Translations under genes and position numbers: made by a program
Notes under the pieces: model-generated
What the model was told of the DNA's origin: nothing
The model's input: the letters and a program-made list of their open reading frames with translations, nothing else
The model's database searches: none
Source of the DNA: an uncultured Pseudobdellovibrionaceae bacterium
Lineage (GTDB): Bacteria > Bdellovibrionota > FAC87 > UBA2466
DNA length: 64,000 nucleotides
Assembly: GCA_964616705.1 (NCBI GenBank)
Contig: CAZTRP010000014.1
Span: 8,770-72,769, forward strand
Reading direction: 5' to 3'
Shown: positions 17,766 to 49,193 of the stretch, piece by piece
Layout of the letters: each line of letters starts with the position of its first letter
Numbering within the stretch: position 1 is the first letter of the stretch

Positions 17766-19523
17766 GTGGCAAAACAAAAAATCACATCCAGCAGCACAGC
17801 GGAATATTTTTCGAAGAACCTACAGCAGGTTGGCTTTTCTTCGCCCACTAAAGCTGTTCTCACAACTCTAAAGGAAGCTGTAGACAACTCTTTGGATGCT
17901 TGCGAGGAAGCAGGCATCTTGCCCGATATTTCGGTTTTCATCGAAAAGGTGGGAACGGGTACCCTTAAAAACACTGATTTGATCAAGATCCGCATTGAAG
18001 ACAATGGGCCGGGTCTTGAGCTCGACGATGTCACCAAAGTATTCGGTGAATACCTCGCTTCTTCAAAGTTTGGACGAGGAAGGTGCTCTCGAGGGCAGCA
18101 GGGTATCGGTATTTCCGCTGCCACGACTTGGGCGCAGCTTACTAGCGCCAAGGGCGTTCAAGTAATTACCAAGACGGCGAAAATGCGTCAGGCCGTTTCC
18201 ACCGTCGTAAATGTCGACATCAAGAACAACAAAGGAATTTTGCAGGACAAAAAGACGATTCAGTGGAATCGTCCACATGGCGTAAGCGTAGAGTTTTTGA
18301 TTGATGGGCGCCTGCAACTTCAGGGCGAAGGTGGCCTGCTGACCTATCTTACGGGCACGAGCCTTGTGAACCCTCACCTTACTTTGAAATACAAAATTGG
18401 CGATAATCCGTTGGAAACGGTTGAACGTGTCACCAAGGAATGCCCGAGTATCCCGGAAGCGACCGAGCCGCACCCGCACACGATGAAACTGGGCGAATTT
18501 ATCGCGCACTCTCACCTATTTGGAAAAATTACTGTCGGTGCATGGTTGAAGCGGGGTTTTTCCCGCATTACCGATAATACGATTCAAGATCTGGTAAAGG
18601 CCGGTATCAAAAAGGCCGTGTTTGAGAAGTCACTCGATTCCACGACGGAAACCGAGTTCAAGGACGTTTTCTCTAAACTCCAGTCCGTGCCCTTGATGGC
18701 CCCAAGTACGCGTTCTGTTATTACGATTGGGGAAGACGCCTTTTCCAAGAGCGTACGGCGCTTGGGCGAAATAGATTTCTTTTCCGTGGTAACGCGAAAG
18801 CCCACGATCTGTGACTTTAAGCCAGTGGCTGTCGAAGTAGCAGTGGCGCGTCTTAAGAACCCTTCAAAAGTTGTGGGGGAAGAAGATTCTCCTGCCTCGG
18901 TTCTTCGTTTCGCGAACCGTGTTCCGTTGCAGTTCGATAAGGCCGCTTGTGCGATGGTTAAATCTATCGAGTCGGTGAACTGGCGCACTTACGGACTTCA
19001 ACAGGCTAAAAATGGTGTACCGAGCGGGCCGTACGTTATTGCAGTGAGCCTGGTTTCCCCTTTCATTAAGTTTAAGAACGCCTCAAAGGAAACTGTCGAT
19101 GCGAGCGATGAGCTGGTCGAAGAGTTTCGAAGAGCTCTAATACAAGCGGGGCAGCGCCTTTCCAGGCACATTCGACGAGAGTCTCGAGAGGCAGATCTTG
19201 AAAACAAGATTCGCCATATTGAGCAGTTTTGTCCGATTTTAGTAGATTGTCTTTGCCGTATTACAAAATCGCCTGAGAAACGAAAGCAGAAGGCCACCGA
19301 AGGCCTAGTGAAACTCTTGGGTAGAGATGTGCGAGTGGCAGAGAAGCAGCTTGAAGAAGCGGTGGAAGATCACAAGAAGGCTCAGAAGGAAGGGAAGCTC
19401 CAAGTTGTCGACGAGGCAACTGGCGAAGGGGAATCCGCTGAGCAAAGCGAAGTAGTTGAGCAAAAGAAGGCGCCTTCAAAGAAGAAAGCGAAGCCCGCTC
19501 GTAGGGAGAAGAGTGCATCATGA
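17766..19523 (+). CDS. Type IIB DNA topoisomerase subunit B (Topo VI B-like, GHKL ATPase).
   Basis: Bergerat-fold motifs are present: the N-box 'LKEAVDNSLDACEEAG', G1 'IRIEDNGPGL', and G2 'GRGRCSRGQQGIGISAA' followed by 'VITKT'. A transducer-like region follows, and the tail is Lys-rich. The start is GTG. Confidence 0.85.
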   Translation: MAKQKITSSSTAEYFSKNLQQVGFSSPTKAVLTTLKEAVDNSLDACEEAGILPDISVFIEKVGTGTLKNTDLIKIRIEDNGPGLELDDVTKVFGEYLASSKFGRGRCSRGQQGIGISAATTWAQLTSAKGVQVITKTAKMRQAVSTVVNVDIKNNKGILQDKKTIQWNRPHGVSVEFLIDGRLQLQGEGGLLTYLTGTSLVNPHLTLKYKIGDNPLETVERVTKECPSIPEATEPHPHTMKLGEFIAHSHLFGKITVGAWLKRGFSRITDNTIQDLVKAGIKKAVFEKSLDSTTETEFKDVFSKLQSVPLMAPSTRSVITIGEDAFSKSVRRLGEIDFFSVVTRKPTICDFKPVAVEVAVARLKNPSKVVGEEDSPASVLRFANRVPLQFDKAACAMVKSIESVNWRTYGLQQAKNGVPSGPYVIAVSLVSPFIKFKNASKETVDASDELVEEFRRALIQAGQRLSRHIRRESREADLENKIRHIEQFCPILVDCLCRITKSPEKRKQKATEGLVKLLGRDVRVAEKQLEEAVEDHKKAQKEGKLQVVDEATGEGESAEQSEVVEQKKAPSKKKAKPARREKSAS

Positions 19524-20662
19524 AGACAGACGATTCCATTCCACATCTTTCAGAAAAACTTTGCTTACGCCTTTTGTCCGACCTTGAGAATGCTCGGCGC
19601 CCAGTTTTGGAAGCCGTGAAATGTTCGCTGGACAATGCGGAATATAATTTTAAAGTCGGCTACCTCACCCCGGGATCGAAGAAAGTCCGAACAGAACTTA
19701 ACGTGTCTTCGGTTCAAAAGATGTCGCGAGCGATTTTTCTTTTGGAAATTCTTCTTCGAAATCTCGAAACGGGCGCAGTGAATACGAAGCGCGAGCTTTA
19801 TTACATCTCAAAAGGTGAAATCAAGCACGATCCGGCTCTAAAACCGCTCGACTTTGCCGATCAGAACGAAAGCGATGCTATCATCGATTTCATTTGCGAA
19901 ATGCTGGAATGTTATCGGGAAGAATTGAATTGTTTTGCAAACGATCGTGGCGGTCAGACTTACTCTCAGCAGCTCGTGGTCACCGAGACAATGCCCGATG
20001 GCGAGAAAGCGGTTGTGGACCTGAGCAGCTTGGGTACCAGCCCCTTTCAGCCAAAGAATCGTCCGCAGAGCTTAAAGTTAAAGGCGAAAAAACGAATAGA
20101 TTTTTGCCTTGTCGTTGAATCTGAAGGCACCGCGAACACCTTCGTGGCCAATGGATTTTGCAAACGCAATAATTGCATCCTTATGGGTGCACAAGGGGTG
20201 CCGAGCAATGCGGTGCGGGGCTGGTGTAAGTTGATTCAAGATCAACTCAAAGTCCCCATTTACTTTTTTGGCGACTTGGACGCGTACACCATTCAAAATA
20301 TTTACCGTACGCTCAAGGCAGGATCTGCGGCCAGTTTGATTAGAAACTCCGACTTTTCCGCGCCCGATGTAAAGTTCCTGGGAGTATTGCCAGAAGACAT
20401 TAAGAAGTACGACTTGAACGACTATCCGGTTCGAGAAAATGACCTTCAAGAGGCGCGAGCGTTAAAGAAAGCTGCCGATGCACTCAAGAATGACCCCTTC
20501 TTTAAAGACAAAAAGAACAAAGGGGTTTCGCAACTCTTAGAGTGGTTGCTAAAGAACAAACGCCGTTGCGAACAACAGGCGTTTTTTACGGTAGATCCCA
20601 GGGATCCCACCATGCCCGAGAAAATCATTATCGAGAAAATTAAGCGCGGGAATTTTATCTAA
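19520..20662 (+). CDS. Type IIB DNA topoisomerase subunit A (Topo VI A / Spo11-like).
   Basis: The WHD/CAP motif 'TKRELYYIS' carries the catalytic Tyr and the upstream Arg. The Toprim domain has the Glu in 'CLVVESEGT' and the DxD in 'YFFGDLDAYT'. Its start overlaps the topo VI B stop (ATGA). Confidence 0.85.
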   Translation: MKTDDSIPHLSEKLCLRLLSDLENARRPVLEAVKCSLDNAEYNFKVGYLTPGSKKVRTELNVSSVQKMSRAIFLLEILLRNLETGAVNTKRELYYISKGEIKHDPALKPLDFADQNESDAIIDFICEMLECYREELNCFANDRGGQTYSQQLVVTETMPDGEKAVVDLSSLGTSPFQPKNRPQSLKLKAKKRIDFCLVVESEGTANTFVANGFCKRNNCILMGAQGVPSNAVRGWCKLIQDQLKVPIYFFGDLDAYTIQNIYRTLKAGSAASLIRNSDFSAPDVKFLGVLPEDIKKYDLNDYPVRENDLQEARALKKAADALKNDPFFKDKKNKGVSQLLEWLLKNKRRCEQQAFFTVDPRDPTMPEKIIIEKIKRGNFI

Positions 20663-40664: not shown

Positions 40665-41690
40665 CTAGGTCCTCTTGGGTTCTTGCTGGGTAATGCAGTG
40701 AAAAGCTCCGCCCCCTTGTAGCAAAGTTGAAGCGGGGCATCCAATTACTTTTCTTCCGGGAAACAGAGGCCGAAGTTGTTCAATTGCCAATGCGTCACGG
40801 TTGGTGCCATAGGTCGGCACTACTACTGAATGGTTAGAAATATAAAAATTCACGTAACTCGCAGGGAGAACCTGCCCATCCTCACTAAGAACTTTGCCGG
40901 GAGAGGTAATTGTATGTACTTGGAGTTTTCTTCCGCGTGCATCGGACATTTTTTCAAGGTCACTCTTGATTTCGTTCAAAACAGAAGCATTTGGATCGCT
41001 TGAATCGGCCGGTGCCATACACACTACTTTCCCGGGTGCTACAAAGCGGGCCAAGGTGTCGATATGGCCGTCGGTATGATCGTTGAGCAGGCCCTCGTAG
41101 AGCCAGAGGACTTTTTTTACTCCTAGAGAATCGATGAGGTGCTTTTCCACTTCTTCGCGGGAAAAACTTCGATTTCGGTTCACATTGAGCAAACACTGTT
41201 CGGTGGTAAGGACCGTTCCTTCCCCATCCACTTCAATGGATCCCCCCTCGAGAACCCAAGAGAAAGGCACCCCGTCATACCCCGAAGCTTCGGCAATGCG
41301 CCGGTTGACTTCATCGTCATAGCGCAAATTAAACTTCTCTCCCCATCCATTGAAGATAAAGCAGCCAGCCTTCAACTCTGCGCCAGGGGTCCGTAAAAAT
41401 AGGGGGCCCGTGTCTCGCAACCAAATATCGCCAAAGCCAATCTCGAAAACACGAATTTCAAGTCCAGATAACGCCTGTCTGGCCTGTTCGGCGCGCATTG
41501 GATTGGGAGCTAAGACACAAAGGGCCTCGCCAACTGAACCACTCGGGGCATAGGAAATAGCTCTACAGAGTTCGACAAACTCCTTTTGGACTTCGACGAG
41601 CTCCTCCTCGCCCCAGAGTTCAGCGTGGCTAGGCCAAGCTACCCAACAGGCTTTGTGAGGTTCCCATTCCGCGGGCATTGAAAATTGCAT
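40665..41690 (-). CDS. aguA: Agmatine deiminase.
   Basis: 'MPAEWEPHKACWVAWPS' is the agmatine deiminase/PAD family N-terminus. The start is taken at the internal Met rather than the ORF track's 41789. Confidence 0.85.
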   Translation of the reverse strand: MQFSMPAEWEPHKACWVAWPSHAELWGEEELVEVQKEFVELCRAISYAPSGSVGEALCVLAPNPMRAEQARQALSGLEIRVFEIGFGDIWLRDTGPLFLRTPGAELKAGCFIFNGWGEKFNLRYDDEVNRRIAEASGYDGVPFSWVLEGGSIEVDGEGTVLTTEQCLLNVNRNRSFSREEVEKHLIDSLGVKKVLWLYEGLLNDHTDGHIDTLARFVAPGKVVCMAPADSSDPNASVLNEIKSDLEKMSDARGRKLQVHTITSPGKVLSEDGQVLPASYVNFYISNHSVVVPTYGTNRDALAIEQLRPLFPGRKVIGCPASTLLQGGGAFHCITQQEPKRT

Positions 41691-41756
41691 GCGGATCTCG
41701 TACCACGAAAGAGGACATCCGGCACGTCTGTGTGGTAGGTGTGGCCGAGAATCGCT

Positions 41757-42494
41757 ATGAAACTCAAAGACGCTGTAGAAAAAATACAAAATCGGGGACT
41801 TCTTCTAGTCTATCCCCTGCAAAATCGGCCGGAACCCCGATCATTGTGGTCGGAGTTCTATCCAAGAACCAAAATGCGTTGGGAATGGGACTCTGAGGGT
41901 GCAGACAATCGCGTGGCTAATCTGTGGCACCTACGTGAAGCGATTTCGCGTTCCGGACAAGTGGTTTACACAAAATGGTTCCGTGGCCGAGCTACGTTTC
42001 TTTCAAAAGAGATCTTCTCGGCATTTTTAGCGCTCCTTAGAGTTCCTGATAGCTCCCTAAGTCGTGCTGCTAGTCAGTTATTGCGGGTGCTTGAAGAAGA
42101 CTCCCCGCTTTCTACTAAAGAGCTAAAGAAACGTTGCCGTCTGGTTGGCCCTGGAAACGAAAGGGTTTACTCAAAGGCATTACAAGAGCTTTGGGACTCA
42201 ATGCAGATTGTTGGTTACGGAGAGGTCGATGATGGGGCATTTCCGTCGCTCGCCATTGGGGCCACGCGGGTTTTGTTTGATGAACTGGTAAAGAACGCGG
42301 AGTCTCTAGATCTTGGTGAGGCCGAGGCGCTAGTTCAAGAAAAACTGGGCAAAGATTCTGTGGTGTATAAGTATTTCTTAAAGCGGCGCGCCGCTCTTTC
42401 TTTAAATCCCGTAAGCCGCGTCCCTAAGAAACGAAAATCCGCTGAAATAGGCGGTATGGTCCGCTACGAAGATTTAGTCCGTGGTGAGCGCTGA
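41757..42494 (+). CDS. Hypothetical protein (about 245 aa). It may be a winged-helix protein.
   Basis: The ORF has a good length and an acceptable start context, but I recognise no family confidently. Confidence 0.45.
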   Translation: MKLKDAVEKIQNRGLLLVYPLQNRPEPRSLWSEFYPRTKMRWEWDSEGADNRVANLWHLREAISRSGQVVYTKWFRGRATFLSKEIFSAFLALLRVPDSSLSRAASQLLRVLEEDSPLSTKELKKRCRLVGPGNERVYSKALQELWDSMQIVGYGEVDDGAFPSLAIGATRVLFDELVKNAESLDLGEAEALVQEKLGKDSVVYKYFLKRRAALSLNPVSRVPKKRKSAEIGGMVRYEDLVRGER

Positions 42495-43877
42495 ACACCT
42501 TTTCGGTAGGTACGCTACGAGGGGGCCACGGCGGGCATTTTTAGAATTTGTTCGGATAAGTACTTTCTCGACCCACCCCGGTTCAAAACTCGTCACTTTT
42601 TCGTATCGTGCATTCCAATCCGTATCTGGAACAAAATCGGATCGAAGCAATGAAAGCGTCGAGCAGTTGGAATTCGAATAGTTTGCTCGAGCGATGGAAG
42701 CCCATTGAACCTTTCGAAGTAACAGGGCTTGTGGGTAAAACACCAGAGCGCCCCCAACGCCATCGACGGCAGAAATTTCCGGGTGAAGAGCAAGCCACGC
42801 GGTGAGCTGAATGAGATTTCTTTGCGCCGTATTGGTACACGTCACCAAAAGCAGAAAGGCGTTGAGGCCCACGAACCAGGCCTTGCGCCAGGGGGCGCCG
42901 GCTTCCCGTAGCCAAGCAGCGAGTGGAACCAGGCAAAAAAGGAAGATCGGGACAACGGGAACAAGAAATCTCTCCTCCTTGTGGGGCGATAACGTGTGGG
43001 CGAGGAGAAAAAACACGAAGTAACTCAGGGGGGCCAAGTATCCGGCAAAGGCCTCTTTCCACGCAAAACCGCGGTACCTAGAGAGCAATGCTGGAGGAAG
43101 GGTCAGGCCAAAGGTAAGTGCCAAGAAGGTGTAAAATGGCATACGCCCGAAATGTTCCCCCGAGTACTGGATATTGTATTCAACATAGCTTCTAAGCTGA
43201 CTGTGAAAACGCCCTTGTAGAAACCAGTCGGGAAGGCCCGTAAGGACGAAAACCCCTAGGCCGAAGGCCAAGAAAAGGGACAACTCCCGCGGCCGCCTAG
43301 TTTGTAGGACCACGCATGCAAGGCCTAGAACGCAAATCCCTGCTTGAAATCTCATCATGGAGGCCAAACCAAGAAAGCCCAATGCCATGAGTAGTGAGCG
43401 CGGTGACGTGCTTCGTTGGTAGTTTCTTGCATGAACTGCACTCCAAGTAAGAAAGGGCATGCAGAAAGTCTCAATCATCGGACGAGTAGAAAACAAAGGA
43501 AGGGCCCAATAGAAGCAAATCAAAACCTGGGCAATTCTGCGTTGGAGCGCTGTTGATCTATCGAAAAATGCGGTGGTGGCCCAAAATTGGAGCACGAAAA
43601 CCACTCCTCCCAGTAGAGCGAGGGCGAATCGCATTTGGGAAATGGGATCCAAAATTCCAAATAGCAGGGGAATCTGACCGAGGCCCAAAAGAAGCAGCTT
43701 TGGAACGTAGGGGTGAATTCCGGAAATAAGCGCTCGCCAGTGAGGAGATTCCTGTGCGGGCACCATGATCGCAAAGCCGTTGTTGTAGTCGTCAATGCTG
43801 ATAATGCTCAGGTTAAAAAAACCCGTCAGAGCGGTAACTAGGAAACCAGTCCAAAATATTACTGCAGATGTAGGCAT
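42474..43877 (-). CDS. GT-C mannosyltransferase, GT22/Alg9-PIG-B-like (polyprenyl-phosphate-mannose dependent).
   Basis: It is polytopic. The N-terminal loop has 'SIISIDDYNNG' (acidic DxD-like). The family signature '...SPHKEERFLVPVVP' matches the HKEERF motif of Alg9/Alg12/PIG-B-type alpha-mannosyltransferases. The start is set at the internal Met at 43877. Confidence 0.65.
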   Translation of the reverse strand: MPTSAVIFWTGFLVTALTGFFNLSIISIDDYNNGFAIMVPAQESPHWRALISGIHPYVPKLLLLGLGQIPLLFGILDPISQMRFALALLGGVVFVLQFWATTAFFDRSTALQRRIAQVLICFYWALPLFSTRPMIETFCMPFLTWSAVHARNYQRSTSPRSLLMALGFLGLASMMRFQAGICVLGLACVVLQTRRPRELSLFLAFGLGVFVLTGLPDWFLQGRFHSQLRSYVEYNIQYSGEHFGRMPFYTFLALTFGLTLPPALLSRYRGFAWKEAFAGYLAPLSYFVFFLLAHTLSPHKEERFLVPVVPIFLFCLVPLAAWLREAGAPWRKAWFVGLNAFLLLVTCTNTAQRNLIQLTAWLALHPEISAVDGVGGALVFYPQALLLRKVQWASIARANYSNSNCSTLSLLRSDFVPDTDWNARYEKVTSFEPGWVEKVLIRTNSKNARRGPLVAYLPKRCSALTTD

Positions 43878-43896
43878 GGCTGGACGAATCCTAGCA

Positions 43897-44667
43897 CTAG
43901 AGGGGTAGGTGGAATAGCGGCTTGTCGGTGTCCTTTTTAAACAAGAATAAGTAGTTAAATCCGCGAAGGAAGTAGTTTCCATCGACTGCGGCAGTGTGCC
44001 AGTGGTTGCGTTTTAGTGTCCGGTTGTGCCGAGTCACGCTGATAATGTCGATTGGGTGGAATTGGCGCTTAGCCAACTCAAAGAGTTCAAAGCCAATGGG
44101 CGAGAAAGGCTTGCCCTTCTTGTAGGAGTCACAAACATAAATAGCGAAGTACCGCTTGTTCTTGAGCACCCGAAATGCCTCGCCAATCACCTGATTCATT
44201 GCCTGGTAATAGTCGGGGGTACGTGAATCCAGTTCGCCAATACATTGGGGATCCCCGGAATACCGAATATGGTTCGAATAGGGGGGATCCATAAAAAAGA
44301 AGTCTACGGTTTCAGGCTGCAGGGGGAGATTTCGGGCGTCCGCCTTCACAATGTCTTCCCGGAAGGGGGCAATATCAAAACCCAGGCCTTTTCGTTTTAA
44401 GTCTTGGCAAACGGCAAGTGTGGTACCGCTCCCGCACATTGGGTCCACCACGGTGTCGTTTTCGCGCGTATAGCGCTCTAGTAGGTTCCAAATGACATAA
44501 GAAGGCGTCGCCCCCTTATAGTCTTTGTGCCCTTGCATTCCGGTTCCGTAATGTTGAGAGGGGTACTCCCAAAGTGTGGTGGTTTGCAGCTTGAGAGAGG
44601 GTCTCTTCCAAAGCTGAAAAGGCTTTTTCGGCCCCTTGGCCGGGTGCATTTGGGCTTGGTCGTCCAT
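43897..44667 (-). CDS. N6-adenine/N4-cytosine-type DNA methyltransferase with a permuted motif order (I before IV).
   Basis: 'LWEYPSQ...GATPSYV...LLERYTRENDTVVDPMCGSGTTLAVCQDLKRKGLGFDIAP' matches the AdoMet-binding half of N6_N4 MTases (motif I). The catalytic 'FFMDPPYSN' (motif IV) lies about 30 aa downstream. I see no partner restriction gene. Confidence 0.6.
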   Translation of the reverse strand: MDDQAQMHPAKGPKKPFQLWKRPSLKLQTTTLWEYPSQHYGTGMQGHKDYKGATPSYVIWNLLERYTRENDTVVDPMCGSGTTLAVCQDLKRKGLGFDIAPFREDIVKADARNLPLQPETVDFFFMDPPYSNHIRYSGDPQCIGELDSRTPDYYQAMNQVIGEAFRVLKNKRYFAIYVCDSYKKGKPFSPIGFELFELAKRQFHPIDIISVTRHNRTLKRNHWHTAAVDGNYFLRGFNYLFLFKKDTDKPLFHLPL

Positions 44668-44732
44668 TGGGACGGCAATAGACCATATCCTGTGTTTGCG
44701 TTCCAGCGAGAATTGAGGTCAATTCGGGGGCT

Positions 44733-45116
44733 ATGGAAAATCACCAGGTCCTCAATATTGGCAAAATCCAGGAATTTCAGCGCAACTTCGTTAGGGAGCG
44801 CGATTGGGAAAAGTTCCACACCCCCAAGAACTTAGCTATGGCACTTGCCGGGGAAGCGGGTGAATTACTGGAGCTTTTTCAGTGGCTGACAGCCGAGGAA
44901 TCTTACCGTTTAGCCGAGTCGCCTCAGAAAGCCCAAGCGCTACGCCATGAAATGTCGGACATTCTTTTCTACTTGCTCCGCCTTGCGGATGGCTTTGGAA
45001 TCGACCTAGAAAAGGCGCTATGGGAGAAGTTGGAAGAAAACGCCCGTAAGTATCCCGTCGAACTATCCAAGGGACGAGCTACGAAGTACACCGAATTTGC
45101 TCAGGGTAACGACTAG
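44733..45116 (+). CDS. MazG-like nucleoside triphosphate pyrophosphohydrolase (YpjD-type, all-alpha).
   Basis: 'HTPKNLAMALAGEAGELLELFQW' (EExGEL metal-binding) and 'HEMSDILFYLLRLADGFGIDLE' are present. Confidence 0.75.
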   Translation: MENHQVLNIGKIQEFQRNFVRERDWEKFHTPKNLAMALAGEAGELLELFQWLTAEESYRLAESPQKAQALRHEMSDILFYLLRLADGFGIDLEKALWEKLEENARKYPVELSKGRATKYTEFAQGND

Positions 45117-45139
45117 CGTACGGAGCTCCCTCTGACTTT

Positions 45140-45532
45140 CTAAGTTGGAGAGTCTCTAAACACAAAATACACGGCTCCGACTAGGCAAATGCCCGCCCAA
45201 ATCATGTTCGTTGTTAGGCGGATCCCCATGTAAAAATAGGCGAAACCCGCAAAGACCAACAACGTTATGACTTCTTGAAGCACTTTTAGTTGGGGCAACG
45301 AGTAAAAGCGGAATCCTATGCGGTTCCCGGGTACCTGGAGGCAGTATTCGAAAAATGCTATCCCCCAGCTGACTAGTATAGCGATCCAAATTGGCTGGTG
45401 GTTGAGGTGCTTCAAGTGGCCATACCAGGCATAGGTCATGAAGATATTGGAAAGAAGCAGAAAAATTACCGTAGCCACCATAGAATACTTTTCTAACCTG
45501 TTGTAGATAAGGAGTCGATTATGGACACTCAT
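45140..45532 (-). CDS. Small DMT/EamA-like membrane protein (4 TM).
   Basis: It is a hydrophobic 130-aa protein. 'YCLQVPGNRIGF...LPQLKVLQEVITL' resembles small DMT-superfamily proteins. Confidence 0.45.
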   Translation of the reverse strand: MSVHNRLLIYNRLEKYSMVATVIFLLLSNIFMTYAWYGHLKHLNHQPIWIAILVSWGIAFFEYCLQVPGNRIGFRFYSLPQLKVLQEVITLLVFAGFAYFYMGIRLTTNMIWAGICLVGAVYFVFRDSPT

Positions 45533-46186
45533 TTACTTGGCATTTTGATCCAGACGATTCCTGTGGTTTTTGCCGCCTTGTTTCCGGTTTTGAACCCAAT
45601 TGGGTCGGCGATTATCTTGCTTCCCCTTACTACCAATATTGACGACACCACTCGCCAGTTTATTTCAAGAAAGGTGGCGCGCAATACGTTTGTTCTACTC
45701 ACTGTCGTTCTTTTTGCGGGCAGCGCTTTACTCGCTTTTTTTGGCATATCTATTCCAGTAGTTCAGGCGGCGGGGGGAATGGTCCTTGTTTCAATGGGTT
45801 GGAAAATGCTGACGGCGACCGACTTAGTAGATACCGAAAAAGACGGTACACCCCAACCGGGTACTCTTGCCGATCAGACTTTCTATCCGTTCACCTTTCC
45901 GTTTACCGTTGGACCCGGAAGCGTGGCAGTGACCTTAACCTTGAGCGCTCATACATCGCACGATACCTGGATTGAGACATTTGTTAGCCGAGGCGGTGCT
46001 TTGATTAGCTTCTTGGCTTTGGCCGTAACCGTCTACCTTTCACTTGCGTACACGGTATCTCTGCTTCAGCGGGTGGGCCCTTCAGCCACAAAGGTAAGTA
46101 TGCGGCTGATGGCATTTATCATTCTGTGCATTGGAGCCCAAATTAGTTGGACCGGCGTGCATTCGCTGTTGATGCAACTTCATTGA
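45521..46186 (+). CDS. marC: MarC family integral membrane protein (UPF0056).
   Basis: 'FAALFPVLNPIGSAIILLPLT' and a 6-TM architecture are typical of MarC. Confidence 0.75.
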   Translation: MDTHLLGILIQTIPVVFAALFPVLNPIGSAIILLPLTTNIDDTTRQFISRKVARNTFVLLTVVLFAGSALLAFFGISIPVVQAAGGMVLVSMGWKMLTATDLVDTEKDGTPQPGTLADQTFYPFTFPFTVGPGSVAVTLTLSAHTSHDTWIETFVSRGGALISFLALAVTVYLSLAYTVSLLQRVGPSATKVSMRLMAFIILCIGAQISWTGVHSLLMQLH

Positions 46187-46227
46187 ACGCTCGCCAAGTT
46201 CCCCCCGGTCGAGCTATTCTTTTCTAA

Positions 46228-47352
46228 GTGAAAATCTGTATTCATGCTCTAGGCATATCGATGGGCGGTGGCGCTCGGCACTTAGAGAACTTTTTGCGGG
46301 CCCTCTCGGCCGATCCCCAGGGTCACACTTTCCTCGTGCTAGTTCGCTCCTCTGAAAATTTGCATGTACACAGTTCGGCAGTTGTTTTGAAAAACCCGGG
46401 CGGTATATTTAGCAAGAACCCAGTTTTTCGGTTTATTCACGATCAAGTTTTGCTTCCATTCCGGTTGTGGTTCGGAAAATTTGATGCCGTTGTATCGTTA
46501 GCGAACTTTGGTCCGGTGTTTTCGCCTGCCCCCCACATTCTGTTTGAGCGAAATGCGCTGCACTTCTGGGACGGTCCGCAGGGAGCTACTTTTCATCTCT
46601 CGTTTGCAGAGCGATGCCGACGGTGGTTGATCGAGAAAACTGCCCGTCGAGCTACGCTCATAGTTGCTCCCACCCATGCAATGGTCGCCGGTATGCAGAG
46701 TAAGTTGCCGAGCATTCCCAAGTCGAAGTTTTCCGTGCTTCCCCATGGGTTCGATCTGGAAACGAGTGTGGGCCACGTGACAAAGGCGCACGACTGCCGT
46801 GGACTGAAACTTCTCTACGTGGCGCACTATGCTTGGTACAAAGGATTTGAATTTCTTCTGCGGGCCGTTGCCGAATTAAAGCGGCGCAACGTCGATTTTC
46901 GCCTCTCCCTTACGTTGGGTAAGGAAACTGATTCGACCACTGTAGCTTCTCTTTCGGCGCTTGCTAAAGACCTAGGCGTTCTCGATAGCTTAGTTTTTCT
47001 TGGTAGAATTCCTTCTAATCAAATGGGTTCGTTCTATAGAGATGCCGACGCACTGGTATTTCCTTCCCTGTGTGAGTCTTTCGGTTTTCCACTGCTTGAA
47101 GCGATGGGAAACAGGGTTCCCGTAGTGGCAACGGATCTCTTGGTGTGCCGCGAGATTTGCGGGGGTGCCGCTTTGTATTACCAAGTGGGCAATGTTTCGG
47201 ATGCCGCTGATAAGATCCTGGAAGTTTCAAGATTGGCGACGAGAACGCGCCTTGTCGACGAAGGACACAAGAGAATGCAGTCCCGGGATTGGAGTTGGCG
47301 TGCCTACACCGCCGACTTTATTGGCTTGGTTTCGGAGGCCGTTGATCGGTGA
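46228..47352 (+). CDS. Glycosyltransferase family 4.
   Basis: It has a GT-B C-terminal domain with 'FPSLCESFGFPLLEAMGNRVPVVATD' (EX7E motif). Confidence 0.8.
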   Translation: MKICIHALGISMGGGARHLENFLRALSADPQGHTFLVLVRSSENLHVHSSAVVLKNPGGIFSKNPVFRFIHDQVLLPFRLWFGKFDAVVSLANFGPVFSPAPHILFERNALHFWDGPQGATFHLSFAERCRRWLIEKTARRATLIVAPTHAMVAGMQSKLPSIPKSKFSVLPHGFDLETSVGHVTKAHDCRGLKLLYVAHYAWYKGFEFLLRAVAELKRRNVDFRLSLTLGKETDSTTVASLSALAKDLGVLDSLVFLGRIPSNQMGSFYRDADALVFPSLCESFGFPLLEAMGNRVPVVATDLLVCREICGGAALYYQVGNVSDAADKILEVSRLATRTRLVDEGHKRMQSRDWSWRAYTADFIGLVSEAVDR

Positions 47353-49193
47353 GCTAGTAGCCAGTTGGCCAGCGAATACAAGGCCCATACCTGGCTCCAA
47401 ATGACTCCATTTTTTCGTTTTGAATAGTCGGAATATACTTTTTCAGCCACCTGTAAATCAATTCCGAGTTGGTACCAAACTCCACCGTAGTCTGAGCTAA
47501 ACGTCGCTCGAACTTGGTTTTGCAGAGCGCCATCAATAAGTTCATTCCAGTGAAAGCTGAAACCCGATTTTTTCCGTTCGATGGATTCTTTAGGCAAATC
47601 CTTCCCTATCGTCTGAAGGATTAAGGGTTTGTTTCTTGTCCCCGCTACCTTTGAGCGGCCACTAATGGATGCGACCAGCTCCACTAAACGGTGATCCAAG
47701 AACGGCCCGCGGATTTCTAAAGAGTTCGCCATTCCCATACTGTCAGTGTCGCGCAAGAGAACATTCTTTAGATAAATTTCTATGTCCATCGCGCTTAGCG
47801 CATTTATGGGGTCACGAACATTTTCAATCCACGGAACAAGTTCTCTTACCCATTTGCTTAGTGGGGTGGTGTCTTGGCCGGCAATGAGTTTTGATCTTGA
47901 AGAATCTAGAAACAGGGCTCGAGAAATTCCGTAATAGTCCCAAATTTCTTTAGAGCTGGAATAGAACGCCGCGAGCTTCTCAGATGGACGCCCAGAAAAC
48001 CTTCCCCATGGGAGTTTTGGGACGCGTCGTAGCCACGCAAAATGTTTTGCTCTGTGAAAGTGTCCATAGCCACAAAACAATTCATCCGCACCGACTCCAC
48101 TTAGCGCAACTTTAAAACCAGTGCGATGGGCTGCTTCGGAAATAGCAAACGTATTAATTCCGTCCATGGAAGGCTGGTCCATTTTATGAATTGCACGCTC
48201 TGCCAGCGTCGCGAAAATGGAACCGGGAAGTGGCACCTCGGTATGGCGGGTTTTAAGCCAAGCCGCAACTCTTCTTGCCTCTCGACGGTCTGCCGACTCC
48301 CCCTCTTCCGAGAACGCACTTAGAGTAAATAGTTCTGAAGAGGTGCCTCGTGTCGCTGCGGCTGCGATACTGCCCGAGTCGATGCCACCCGAAAGAAACA
48401 GCGCCAGAGGGACATCAGATACTAGACGACATGTGACAGCATCGCTTAAGAGCCCTGCGACAAAATCTAAATCAATTGAGTCGTTGACGCTAAGATACCC
48501 AAATGGGTTCTGCCAGAATCGGCGCGACACGATTTTAAAATCTTGCGAAGACACTTTGAGTAAGCTGCCGGCTTCGACTACATGGCCTCCCTCGTATACA
48601 GTGTGAGGCTCCGCGACGCTTCCAAATGCGAGATACGAATCTATAGCTTTGGCAGAAATTTTGGTTCCAAGAAAACCAGCTTTAGCGAGAGCGGATACTT
48701 CCGAGGCAAATGCAAAACCGTCTTTGTTGTGACAATAGTACAGCGGTTTGATCCCGAGCCGATCTCGGCAAAGGGTAAGGGTTCGCTCCGACTGATCCCA
48801 GATAGCAAATGCAAACTCGCCTTGGAGCAGCTCGGGCGTTTTATCGCCCCATAGGACCCATGCTTTTAGAAGTACTTCGGTGTCGCCCGTTGAGTGAAAT
48901 GGGCCGGCACCTGACGCTTCGAGTCGATTGCGTAGTTCGGTGTGATTGTAAATTTCTCCGTTGTAGATGAGCGTGAATCTCCCCGAGGAGTCCGTCATTG
49001 GTTGCTTTGCGTTCGGGCTGAGATCGCGGATGGCAAGGCGTCTGTGGCCAAAAGCTACATGAGTGCTGCCTTCATCGTACGAAGCGTAGAAGGCGGTGCC
49101 GGAATCTGGGCCGCGGTGCACCATGCAGTCCCGCAACGCTACGAGTCGGTTTTTTTCTTCGCGGTGAGAGAGAACCCCAGCAATGGCACACAT
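47304..49193 (-). CDS. asnB: Asparagine synthase (glutamine-hydrolysing) family amidotransferase (WbpS/AsnB-like).
   Basis: The N-terminal 'MCAIAGV' is a Ntn glutaminase Cys2. 'SGGIDSGSIAA' is the PP-loop. The protein is 629 aa. Confidence 0.9.
   Translation of the reverse strand: MCAIAGVLSHREEKNRLVALRDCMVHRGPDSGTAFYASYDEGSTHVAFGHRRLAIRDLSPNAKQPMTDSSGRFTLIYNGEIYNHTELRNRLEASGAGPFHSTGDTEVLLKAWVLWGDKTPELLQGEFAFAIWDQSERTLTLCRDRLGIKPLYYCHNKDGFAFASEVSALAKAGFLGTKISAKAIDSYLAFGSVAEPHTVYEGGHVVEAGSLLKVSSQDFKIVSRRFWQNPFGYLSVNDSIDLDFVAGLLSDAVTCRLVSDVPLALFLSGGIDSGSIAAAATRGTSSELFTLSAFSEEGESADRREARRVAAWLKTRHTEVPLPGSIFATLAERAIHKMDQPSMDGINTFAISEAAHRTGFKVALSGVGADELFCGYGHFHRAKHFAWLRRVPKLPWGRFSGRPSEKLAAFYSSSKEIWDYYGISRALFLDSSRSKLIAGQDTTPLSKWVRELVPWIENVRDPINALSAMDIEIYLKNVLLRDTDSMGMANSLEIRGPFLDHRLVELVASISGRSKVAGTRNKPLILQTIGKDLPKESIERKKSGFSFHWNELIDGALQNQVRATFSSDYGGVWYQLGIDLQVAEKVYSDYSKRKNGVIWSQVWALYSLANWLLAHRSTASETKPIKSAV

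Follow-up and report, generated by a model that had tools for sequence, protein, structure and literature searches.

The 64-kb stretch of DNA analysed here (64,000 nt, called the window), from a contig of an uncultured Pseudobdellovibrionaceae bacterium, holds a divergent pair of genes. The product of one, which we call the methylase, is a chromosomal, solitary (orphan) amino-group methyltransferase of a compact and very conserved family. The other, judged by its sequence, encodes a DCTPP1-type all-alpha pyrophosphohydrolase of (deoxy)nucleoside triphosphates ((d)NTPs), a house-cleaning enzyme related to MazG. The best reading of the methylase is that of a housekeeping orphan. The combined proposal, a housekeeping orphan that is probably directed at DNA and probably linked with the DCTPP1-type enzyme as a ‘writer plus pool sanitiser’, stands in our judgement at about an even chance. 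The parts are ordinary; the points of note are the conservation of a compact orphan methylase across phyla and its recurrent coupling to a relative of DCTPP1.

Both open reading frames (ORFs) are read directly from the sequence, in divergent orientation and each with an ATG start, at the coordinates that a first-pass annotation of the window had given for the pair and its spacer. The features needed for the argument are as follows.

43897-44667, minus strand: methylase, solitary amino-methyltransferase, 256 amino acids (aa); ORF with ATG start
44733-45116, plus strand: MazG-like pyrophosphohydrolase of the DCTPP1 / RS21-C6 type, 127 aa; ORF with ATG start
44668-44732, no strand: divergent intergenic spacer, 65 bp; from the coordinates
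44509-44586, minus strand: conserved N-terminal segment of the methylase, TTTLWEYPSQHYG...QG..Y.GATP, about residues 28-53; from alignment to CcrM 188-220
44419-44445, minus strand: motif I, S-adenosylmethionine (AdoMet)-binding loop DPMCGSGTT, residues 75-83; direct reading
44278-44289, minus strand: motif IV, catalytic DPPY, residues 127-130; direct reading
44677-44687, minus strand: conserved 11-mer TATGGTCTATT, inside the spacer, 10-20 nt upstream of the methylase ATG

A solitary methyltransferase conserved across phyla

A protein search with the methylase returned 4,046 relatives, the best 120 of which are 64–89% identical to it. In a scan of genomes taken at one per species, at least 546 carried the gene, spread over about ten phyla: the carriers include Bdellovibrionota (Bdellovibrionales and Oligoflexales), Hydrogenedentota, Phycisphaerae/Planctomycetota, Nitrospirales, Anaerolineae, Spirochaetota, Myxococcota, Gemmatimonadota and Sumerlaeota. 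Of the loci, the 80 that matched best were kept, with methylases 57–75% identical to the query. Two genomes share long contigs with the window’s clade, with identities of 72% and 71% for RNase J, 75% and 75% for the methylase and 80% and 69% for the MazG-like protein; by this sequence comparison, the divergence of the pair is about that of the core gene RNase J. The RNase J of the window itself has relatives labelled Deltaproteobacteria or Bdellovibrionaceae, at 54–60% identity, which ties the source of the window to an uncultured relative of Bdellovibrionota.

A neighbour-joining tree of the methylases mostly tracks taxonomy, with some transfers, and the gene is chromosomal, nuclease-free and conserved, which is the profile of an orphan methylase. 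The first-pass annotation had seen no restriction endonuclease partner, and there is none within about 6 kb: a Pfam scan of the proteins encoded over 40665-47352 found no nuclease family. With no cognate endonuclease adjoining the methylase, a type II restriction-modification system is ruled out. Clustering of the neighbours in the 80 genome loci likewise gave no universal partner and no recurring nuclease. The neighbours found are specific to lineages, namely a pseudouridine synthase, a MazG-like protein, a class II ribonucleotide reductase and an unannotated protein of about 250–300 aa.

Orphan methyltransferases conserved across phyla are rare, the main examples being Dam and CcrM, and they tend to mark important regulatory systems. 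The present family combines conservation at the level of housekeeping genes with the absence of a recognition domain, and is uncharacterised.

Among the lineage-specific neighbours, the class II (B12-dependent) ribonucleotide reductase, about 1,160 aa long, lies downstream of the methylase and convergent to it in 8 loci of a Bdellovibrionales-type sister clade (L006, L008, L010, L012, L014, L015, L016 and L018). It is a second neighbour of the methylase in deoxynucleotide metabolism.

Motif order and the recognition domain

In Malone’s scheme, beta-class enzymes have the linear order IV-V-VI-VII-VIII-TRD-X-I-II-III, where TRD is the target-recognition domain, and DPPY precedes FxGxG. The methylase has the order X-I-II-III-IV...VIII. 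In an alignment of 15 family sequences (A1), which has about 90 invariant columns, motif I is invariant at D75, P76, C78, G79, G81, T82 and T83 and nearly so at M77 and S80, and DPPY is invariant as well. The gap between the two motifs is 43 residues, longer than the 30 or so first annotated.

The permutation relative to the beta class that the first-pass annotation proposed is borne out by three alignments to that class. PF01555 (N6_N4_Mtase), for which the cut-off is 26.7 bits, matches at 82.6 bits over two stretches of swapped order, residues 27-107 of the methylase corresponding to profile positions 138-219 of 221. CcrM aligns in the same swapped way (query 41-123 to CcrM 188-271, and query 116-139, with DPPY, to CcrM 28-49), as does a canonical beta-class enzyme from another locus (query 55-100 to 224-269 and query 116-130 to 52-66). 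On these alignments, the methylase is a circular permutant relative to beta-class enzymes. The 249-position PADLOC model MTase_II (PDLC03376) scores 100.5 bits, and its best stretch is unpermuted (residues 106-245 to profile 111-249).

The conserved N-terminal segment, in which WEYP occupies residues 33-36, corresponds to the beta-class W-x-x-P...HPTQKP stretch that follows the target-recognition domain, both in CcrM and in the Pfam profile from position 138; many of its columns are invariant, and its predicted local distance difference test (pLDDT) scores are low. In the AlphaFold model, which has a pLDDT of about 90 in the core and 71 overall, helices and strands span residues 55-244 of a chain that ends at 256. 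After the last strand the chain continues for just 12 residues, and ahead of the N-terminal conserved segment it has about 27 that are poorly conserved. The termini of the methylase thus sit at the position of the beta-class target-recognition domain, and the methylase has no such discrete domain. Therefore the chain follows an ordinary linear Rossmann order, motif I and then DPPY, and has no separate recognition domain.

The likeness to beta-class enzymes (such as CcrM, DpnA, M.MboIIA and M.RsrI) extends beyond the shared DPPY and FxGxG-type AdoMet loop. Beta-class enzymes give the best sequence matches (CcrM at E=2e-6, besides the PF01555 score); a W-x-x-P...(H/A)-(P/T)-x-x-(K/S)-(P/Y) segment precedes motif I in both; and the C-terminal strand of the methylase resembles the ‘ETLIWASK’ strand of CcrM. 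Although a member of PF01555, the methylase departs from the beta class in that motif I comes before motif IV and the target-recognition domain is missing. Gamma-class enzymes (M.TaqI, HsdM) have the order X-I-II-III-IV...VIII followed by a C-terminal target-recognition domain. The order of the methylase is gamma-like, but it has no such C-terminal domain, and neither PF02384 nor PF07669 matches it at E<=0.01.

The permutation is a trait of the family and not specific to the gene in the window. Permuted PF01555 methylases of about 260 aa, with the same swapped mapping, occur in two DpnII-type clusters at other loci:

L114, 4968-9196, strand not listed: DpnII-type cluster of a permuted methylase, a D12 Dam-like methylase, a beta-class methylase, Mrr_cat and DpnII
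L115, 4992-8697, strand not listed: DpnII-type cluster with three methylases, identified by ORF sequence similarity alone

A permuted methylase is the first gene of the DpnII-type cluster. The homologue from such a cluster has the same motif order as the window methylase, aligns with it over the full length and is 31% identical to it (E=4e-29, residues 30-245 to 34-261). The cluster enzymes adjoin endonucleases and other methylases, whereas the window subfamily is nuclease-free and lies among housekeeping genes; compared with restriction-modification methylases, it is solitary and far more conserved. Another distant homologue of the same order adjoins a DndB-HEPN protein, and others carry fused ParB_N, HTH_ParB, KorB or DCD domains, or are split by an intein. 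Given the DpnII clusters and the ParB and helix-turn-helix (HTH) fusions, the permuted topology therefore occurs in bona fide DNA-modification contexts. The classical DpnII layout is dpnM-dpnA-dpnB, relative to which the permuted enzyme in L114 and L115 is an additional methylase.

Five homologues at 47–62% identity (P0250, P0252, P0253, P0256 and P0241) carry C-terminal extensions of 100–150 residues that are of low complexity and rich in K, R, S, G and P. No Pfam domain was found in the extensions of P0241 and P0253, the two that were scanned, and a MazG domain fused at this end is ruled out, the extensions being low-complexity basic tails instead. Such tails look like non-specific nucleic-acid-binding tails and might replace a recognition domain.

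A DCTPP1-type neighbour in two gene arrangements

The partner protein matches PF12643 (MazG-like) at 56.7 bits against a cut-off of 27, and mouse RS21-C6 and human dCTP pyrophosphatase 1 (PDB 2a3q, 6sqw) match its residues 12-125 at E=2e-29. Of the two motifs named in the first-pass annotation, ExxDxL is present (E73-M-S-D76-I-L78, 44949-44966) and the other proves to be ExGEL and not EExGEL (G-E41-A-G-E44-L-L-E47, 44853-44873). About half of the residues are identical by eye to DCTPP1 / RS21-C6, the metal-binding E/D motifs are kept, and a C-terminal SKG...KYT segment is common to both. The 127-aa bacterial protein lacks the N-terminal extension of about 30 residues of the 170-aa mammalian DCTPP1, for which, unlike the gene in the window, genetic linkage to a methyltransferase has not been described.

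The first-pass annotation had left open whether the two genes stay together in related genomes, and they do. The divergent arrangement occurs in every member of the window’s clade that could be examined, at least seven related lineages: the window’s own (L001-L004), L005, L009, L088/L089, L090, L092/L093 and L097/L098. The methylase of L005 is 82% identical to that of the window. In L090 and L097 both outer flanks are unlike those of the window, with FecR beyond the MazG-like gene and the exosortase EpsH beyond the methylase, and the pair is intact. The spacer varies from 17 to 72 bp among the pair-bearing relatives.

A second arrangement is found in seven Oligoflexales-type loci, among them one from the cultured Oligoflexus tunisiensis.

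L036, 5181-7319, one strand: three-gene operon of pseudouridine synthase, methylase and MazG-like gene; also in L023, L029, L033, L034, L051 and L067

The first gene encodes a TruC-like synthase of the RluA family, and the methylases bear a basic C-terminal tail of 77–112 aa. The methylase stop overlaps the MazG start or lies no more than 37 nt from it, and the two genes are translationally coupled. The MazG-like proteins of this operon are 45–52% identical to those of the window’s clade, and that of the window is 58–64% identical to homologues not known to adjoin this methylase (such as those of Streptomyces and L094). In a neighbour-joining tree the two MazG sets are not sisters, and an intervening methylase clade (L008, L010) has the class II ribonucleotide reductase beside the methylase and no MazG-like gene; two independent juxtapositions of methylase and MazG-like gene are therefore likely, as far as these sequences tell. 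A third clade with such adjacency was sought in a metagenome scan seeded by a distant subfamily (A2), which added 11 full-length loci, none with a MazG-like gene. Literature searches found no described pairing of a methylase with a MazG-like protein.

The 11-mer in the spacer occurs as one exact copy in the window. The element, which L090 lacks, is kept as TATG[GCT]TCTATT in the spacers of L005, L009, L088 and L092, where the reading frames differ, and probably serves as a promoter or operator. No sigma-70 consensus was found in the spacer, and promoter and terminator scans of the region gave nothing beyond the expectation from shuffled sequence.

Substrate of the methylase

The substrate is probably DNA, because the best relatives are DNA enzymes and because homologues of the same motif order occur in DpnII-type clusters and in ParB/HTH fusions. 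The first-pass annotation had considered that the protein might instead classify with RlmL/Trm11-like rRNA or tRNA methyltransferases. Classification with hidden Markov models places it with the DNA amino-methyltransferases of PF01555: TIGR01177 (Trm11) scores 26.5 bits against a cut-off of 316.55 and Trm14 scores 17 against 280. Neither this outcome nor a pair that falls apart in related genomes was found.

A substrate of RNA is nevertheless worth setting out, unlikely as we take it to be. The methylase would then act on rRNA or tRNA, forming N2-methylguanosine (m2G), N6-methyladenosine (m6A) or N4-methylcytidine (m4C), as a catalytic domain that stands alone, akin to Trm11/RlmL/TrmN; its operon partner in Oligoflexales would be a second RNA modifier, and the MazG-like enzyme would clear the modified NTPs of RNA turnover. 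Several observations speak for this and against DNA. The methylase resembles Trm11 in fold and aligns unpermuted with TIGR01177 (residues 68-204) and with Trm11 chains. DPMCGSGT with DPPY also fits the RNA methylases of UPF0020 (PF01170), at 25.2 bits against a cut-off of 22.3, with no single stretch passing. The TruC-like pseudouridine synthase that opens the Oligoflexales operon overlaps the methylase start there and in L041. For a DNA methylase, the family is unusually well conserved across phyla; the protein has no recognition domain, and close relatives have tails that are basic and rich in K, R and S. Sanitisers that clear NTPs with RNA modifications have, moreover, a precedent in Maf enzymes (PMC3899018).

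Other features of the two proteins speak against RNA. Every one of the best matches of the methylase is a DNA amino-methyltransferase (CcrM, N4C methylases or DpnA), and its residues 27-67, ahead of motif I, form a segment peculiar to beta-class DNA enzymes, in which it differs from Trm11. Compared with the tRNA m2G enzymes Trm11, TrmN and Trm14 of UPF0020, it lacks THUMP, and a Pfam scan found no THUMP, S4 or other RNA-binding domain in it; the NCBIfam scores for RNA methylases lie far under their cut-offs, as given above. Its same-order homologues lie in DpnII restriction-modification clusters and in ParB/HTH fusions, and mammalian DCTPP1-type enzymes are directed at deoxynucleotides (PMC7162842).

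A possible writer and pool sanitiser

In the mechanism that we propose, the methylase would place methyl marks on a polymer, and methylated (d)NTPs would arise as the methylated nucleic acid is degraded and salvaged. The DCTPP1-type pyrophosphatase would hydrolyse these, so that methylated bases would not be re-incorporated at random. We infer the functional link because the two genes meet in two gene arrangements, likely of independent origin, and because DCTPP1 is known to act on methylated dCTP: it hydrolyses dCTP and methylated dCTP and prevents their misincorporation (PMC13291643, PMC4491611, PMC7162842). Maf house-cleaning enzymes act in a similar manner on methylated NTPs and pseudo-UTP from RNA turnover. 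Maf proteins (YhdE/YceF) hydrolyse NTPs that bear post-synthetic polymer marks (m5CTP, m7GTP and pseudo-UTP) and so stop their re-incorporation (PMC3899018); they have a Maf/ITPase-like fold, unlike the all-alpha MazG fold, and no sequence similarity is claimed.

A more specific and quite tentative form of this idea, which we think improbable as it stands, is an ‘epigenetic hygiene’ module. Here the pyrophosphatase would specifically destroy N4-methyl-dCTP or N6-methyl-dATP from the salvage of methylated DNA, and the mark would be set by the sequence-directed orphan methylase only, never by a polymerase. Such hygiene might count most for Bdellovibrionota-like recyclers of foreign nucleotides, and in Oligoflexales the same scheme would take in the pseudouridine synthase, with which the other two genes form an operon. 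Should this hold, it would give prokaryotes a first counterpart to the role proposed for mammalian DCTPP1 in guarding methylation patterns. The repeated genetic coupling to a relative of DCTPP1 raises the idea that bacteria, like mammalian cells, may guard such patterns by hydrolysing methylated nucleotide triphosphates. A cultured carrier of the methylase exists in Oligoflexus tunisiensis Shr3.

Several findings weigh against a linked housekeeping pair. No MazG-like gene adjoins the methylase in 71 of the 80 genome loci or in any of the 11 further metagenome loci, and therefore the methylase can do without that partner. In breadth, the MazG family far exceeds that of the methylase (7,977 matches in a protein search, including Streptomyces), and the nearest relatives of the MazG-like protein outside the window’s clade have no methylase alongside. 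The MazG tree was built by neighbour joining on about 113 positions, which leaves independent recruitment less than firm. No characterised or assayed member of the methylase family emerged from literature searches.

Such findings would suit another account, which we hold to be somewhat unlikely, though the best placed of the alternatives: the two are unrelated housekeeping genes whose synteny was inherited in one lineage, perhaps kept by a shared bidirectional promoter, the methylase acting alone and the MazG-like protein being a general regulator of the dCTP/dNTP pool. The Oligoflexales arrangement would be a second accident or the rearranged remnant of one ancestral accident. In keeping with this, 82 of the 91 loci outside the window’s clade lack the adjacency, and MazG-like genes are very widespread and mostly without a methylase. 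Both clades with the adjacency lie in or near Bdellovibrionota, so that a single ancestral juxtaposition is possible, and other lineage-specific neighbours recur too (the class II ribonucleotide reductase in 8 loci, and a GT22 glycosyltransferase in the window’s clade). By contrast, the pair survives the exchange of both outer flanks, and the stop/start overlap in Oligoflexales, a sign of translational coupling, is hard to square with neutral adjacency. The two MazG sets, moreover, are not each other’s closest relatives, and in the intervening sister clade (L008, L010) no MazG-like gene adjoins the methylase. Were the link accidental after all, a false ‘defence system’ lead would still have been removed, and the permuted topology documented as a family trait shared with enzymes of restriction-modification clusters.

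Mobility and defence

The first-pass annotation described both genes as typical cargo of phages and defence islands, which fails for the methylase family. A search of 72,556 plasmids with the methylase gave one weak match at 29% identity; 50,697 phages gave one partial match, to a gene annotated as ParB; and 2.9 million viral contigs (IMG/VR) gave one partial match at 28% and no true member. All three collections are essentially free of the family. In agreement with the first-pass annotation, no mobile-element genes flank the pair, and the composition profile of the window is flat, at a G+C fraction of about 0.50. An origin from a mobile element is rejected on the near-empty searches together with this flat composition.

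PADLOC matched the methylase to its generic MTase_II and MTase_III models and, weakly, to mad2 of the MADS system, and matched neither the MazG-like protein nor the neighbours. A known defence system would call for matches to both components, and classification as one is rejected. PHROG families gave weak matches to both proteins, those of the methylase being generic methylase matches.

An anti-phage module, in which self DNA would bear the mark of the methylase and infection would set the MazG-like enzyme to deplete or edit the (d)NTP pool, was one of the two roles first proposed, and we regard it as very improbable. It would draw on the weak PHROG and mad2 matches, on the general occurrence of MazG-like and methylase genes in phage and defence contexts, and on distant methylases of the same order that adjoin DpnII, Mrr_cat and DndB-HEPN genes. 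The window itself, however, has no defence-island context, mobile genes or departure from its flat composition, and no conserved sensor or effector partner accompanies the pair. The absence of the methylase family from phages, plasmids and viral contigs, the housekeeping-like divergence and the methylase tree that mostly tracks taxonomy all speak against it, and the MazG-like protein, besides lacking a PADLOC match, is a close relative of DCTPP1 and not a known NTP-depleting effector. The other role first proposed, that of an orphan epigenetic methylase, is the better option.

Surrounding genes

The gene next to the methylase, and the others considered here, are listed below.

42474-43877, minus strand: GT22 (Alg9-like) glycosyltransferase; PF03901, context only
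41739-42494, plus strand: AlkZ-related protein; PF24741, 85 bits
17766-19523, plus strand: Topoisomerase VI B subunit; PF09239 transducer and GHKL ATPase domain

Gene callers on identical contigs start the GT22 gene 19-20 nt past the methylase stop, in the same direction, and the two are possibly co-transcribed. The GT22 gene does not stay with the pair in all relatives, being separated or displaced in L090 and L092. The longest ORF for GT22 (42474-43982, minus strand) has 86 bp in common with the 3′ end of the methylase gene; the gene callers place the start about 105 nt later (467 aa), and the overlap is therefore an artefact of ORF listing.

Near neighbours of the pair, besides GT22 and the AlkZ-related protein, are an agmatine deiminase with a CN hydrolase, the membrane proteins DMT_6 and MarC, a GT4 glycosyltransferase and an asparagine synthase, whose domains were found in the gene at 47304-49193. 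The AlkZ-related protein, kin of DNA-glycosylase winged-helix proteins, is encoded two genes from the methylase, and its synteny is kept in most of the window’s clade, though not in L090. More distant genes in the window encode Lon, RNase J, UvrD and Topoisomerase VI (Topo VI). The last of these is unusual among bacteria; an ORF at 19520-20662 (plus strand) overlaps the gene for its B subunit and presumably encodes the A subunit.

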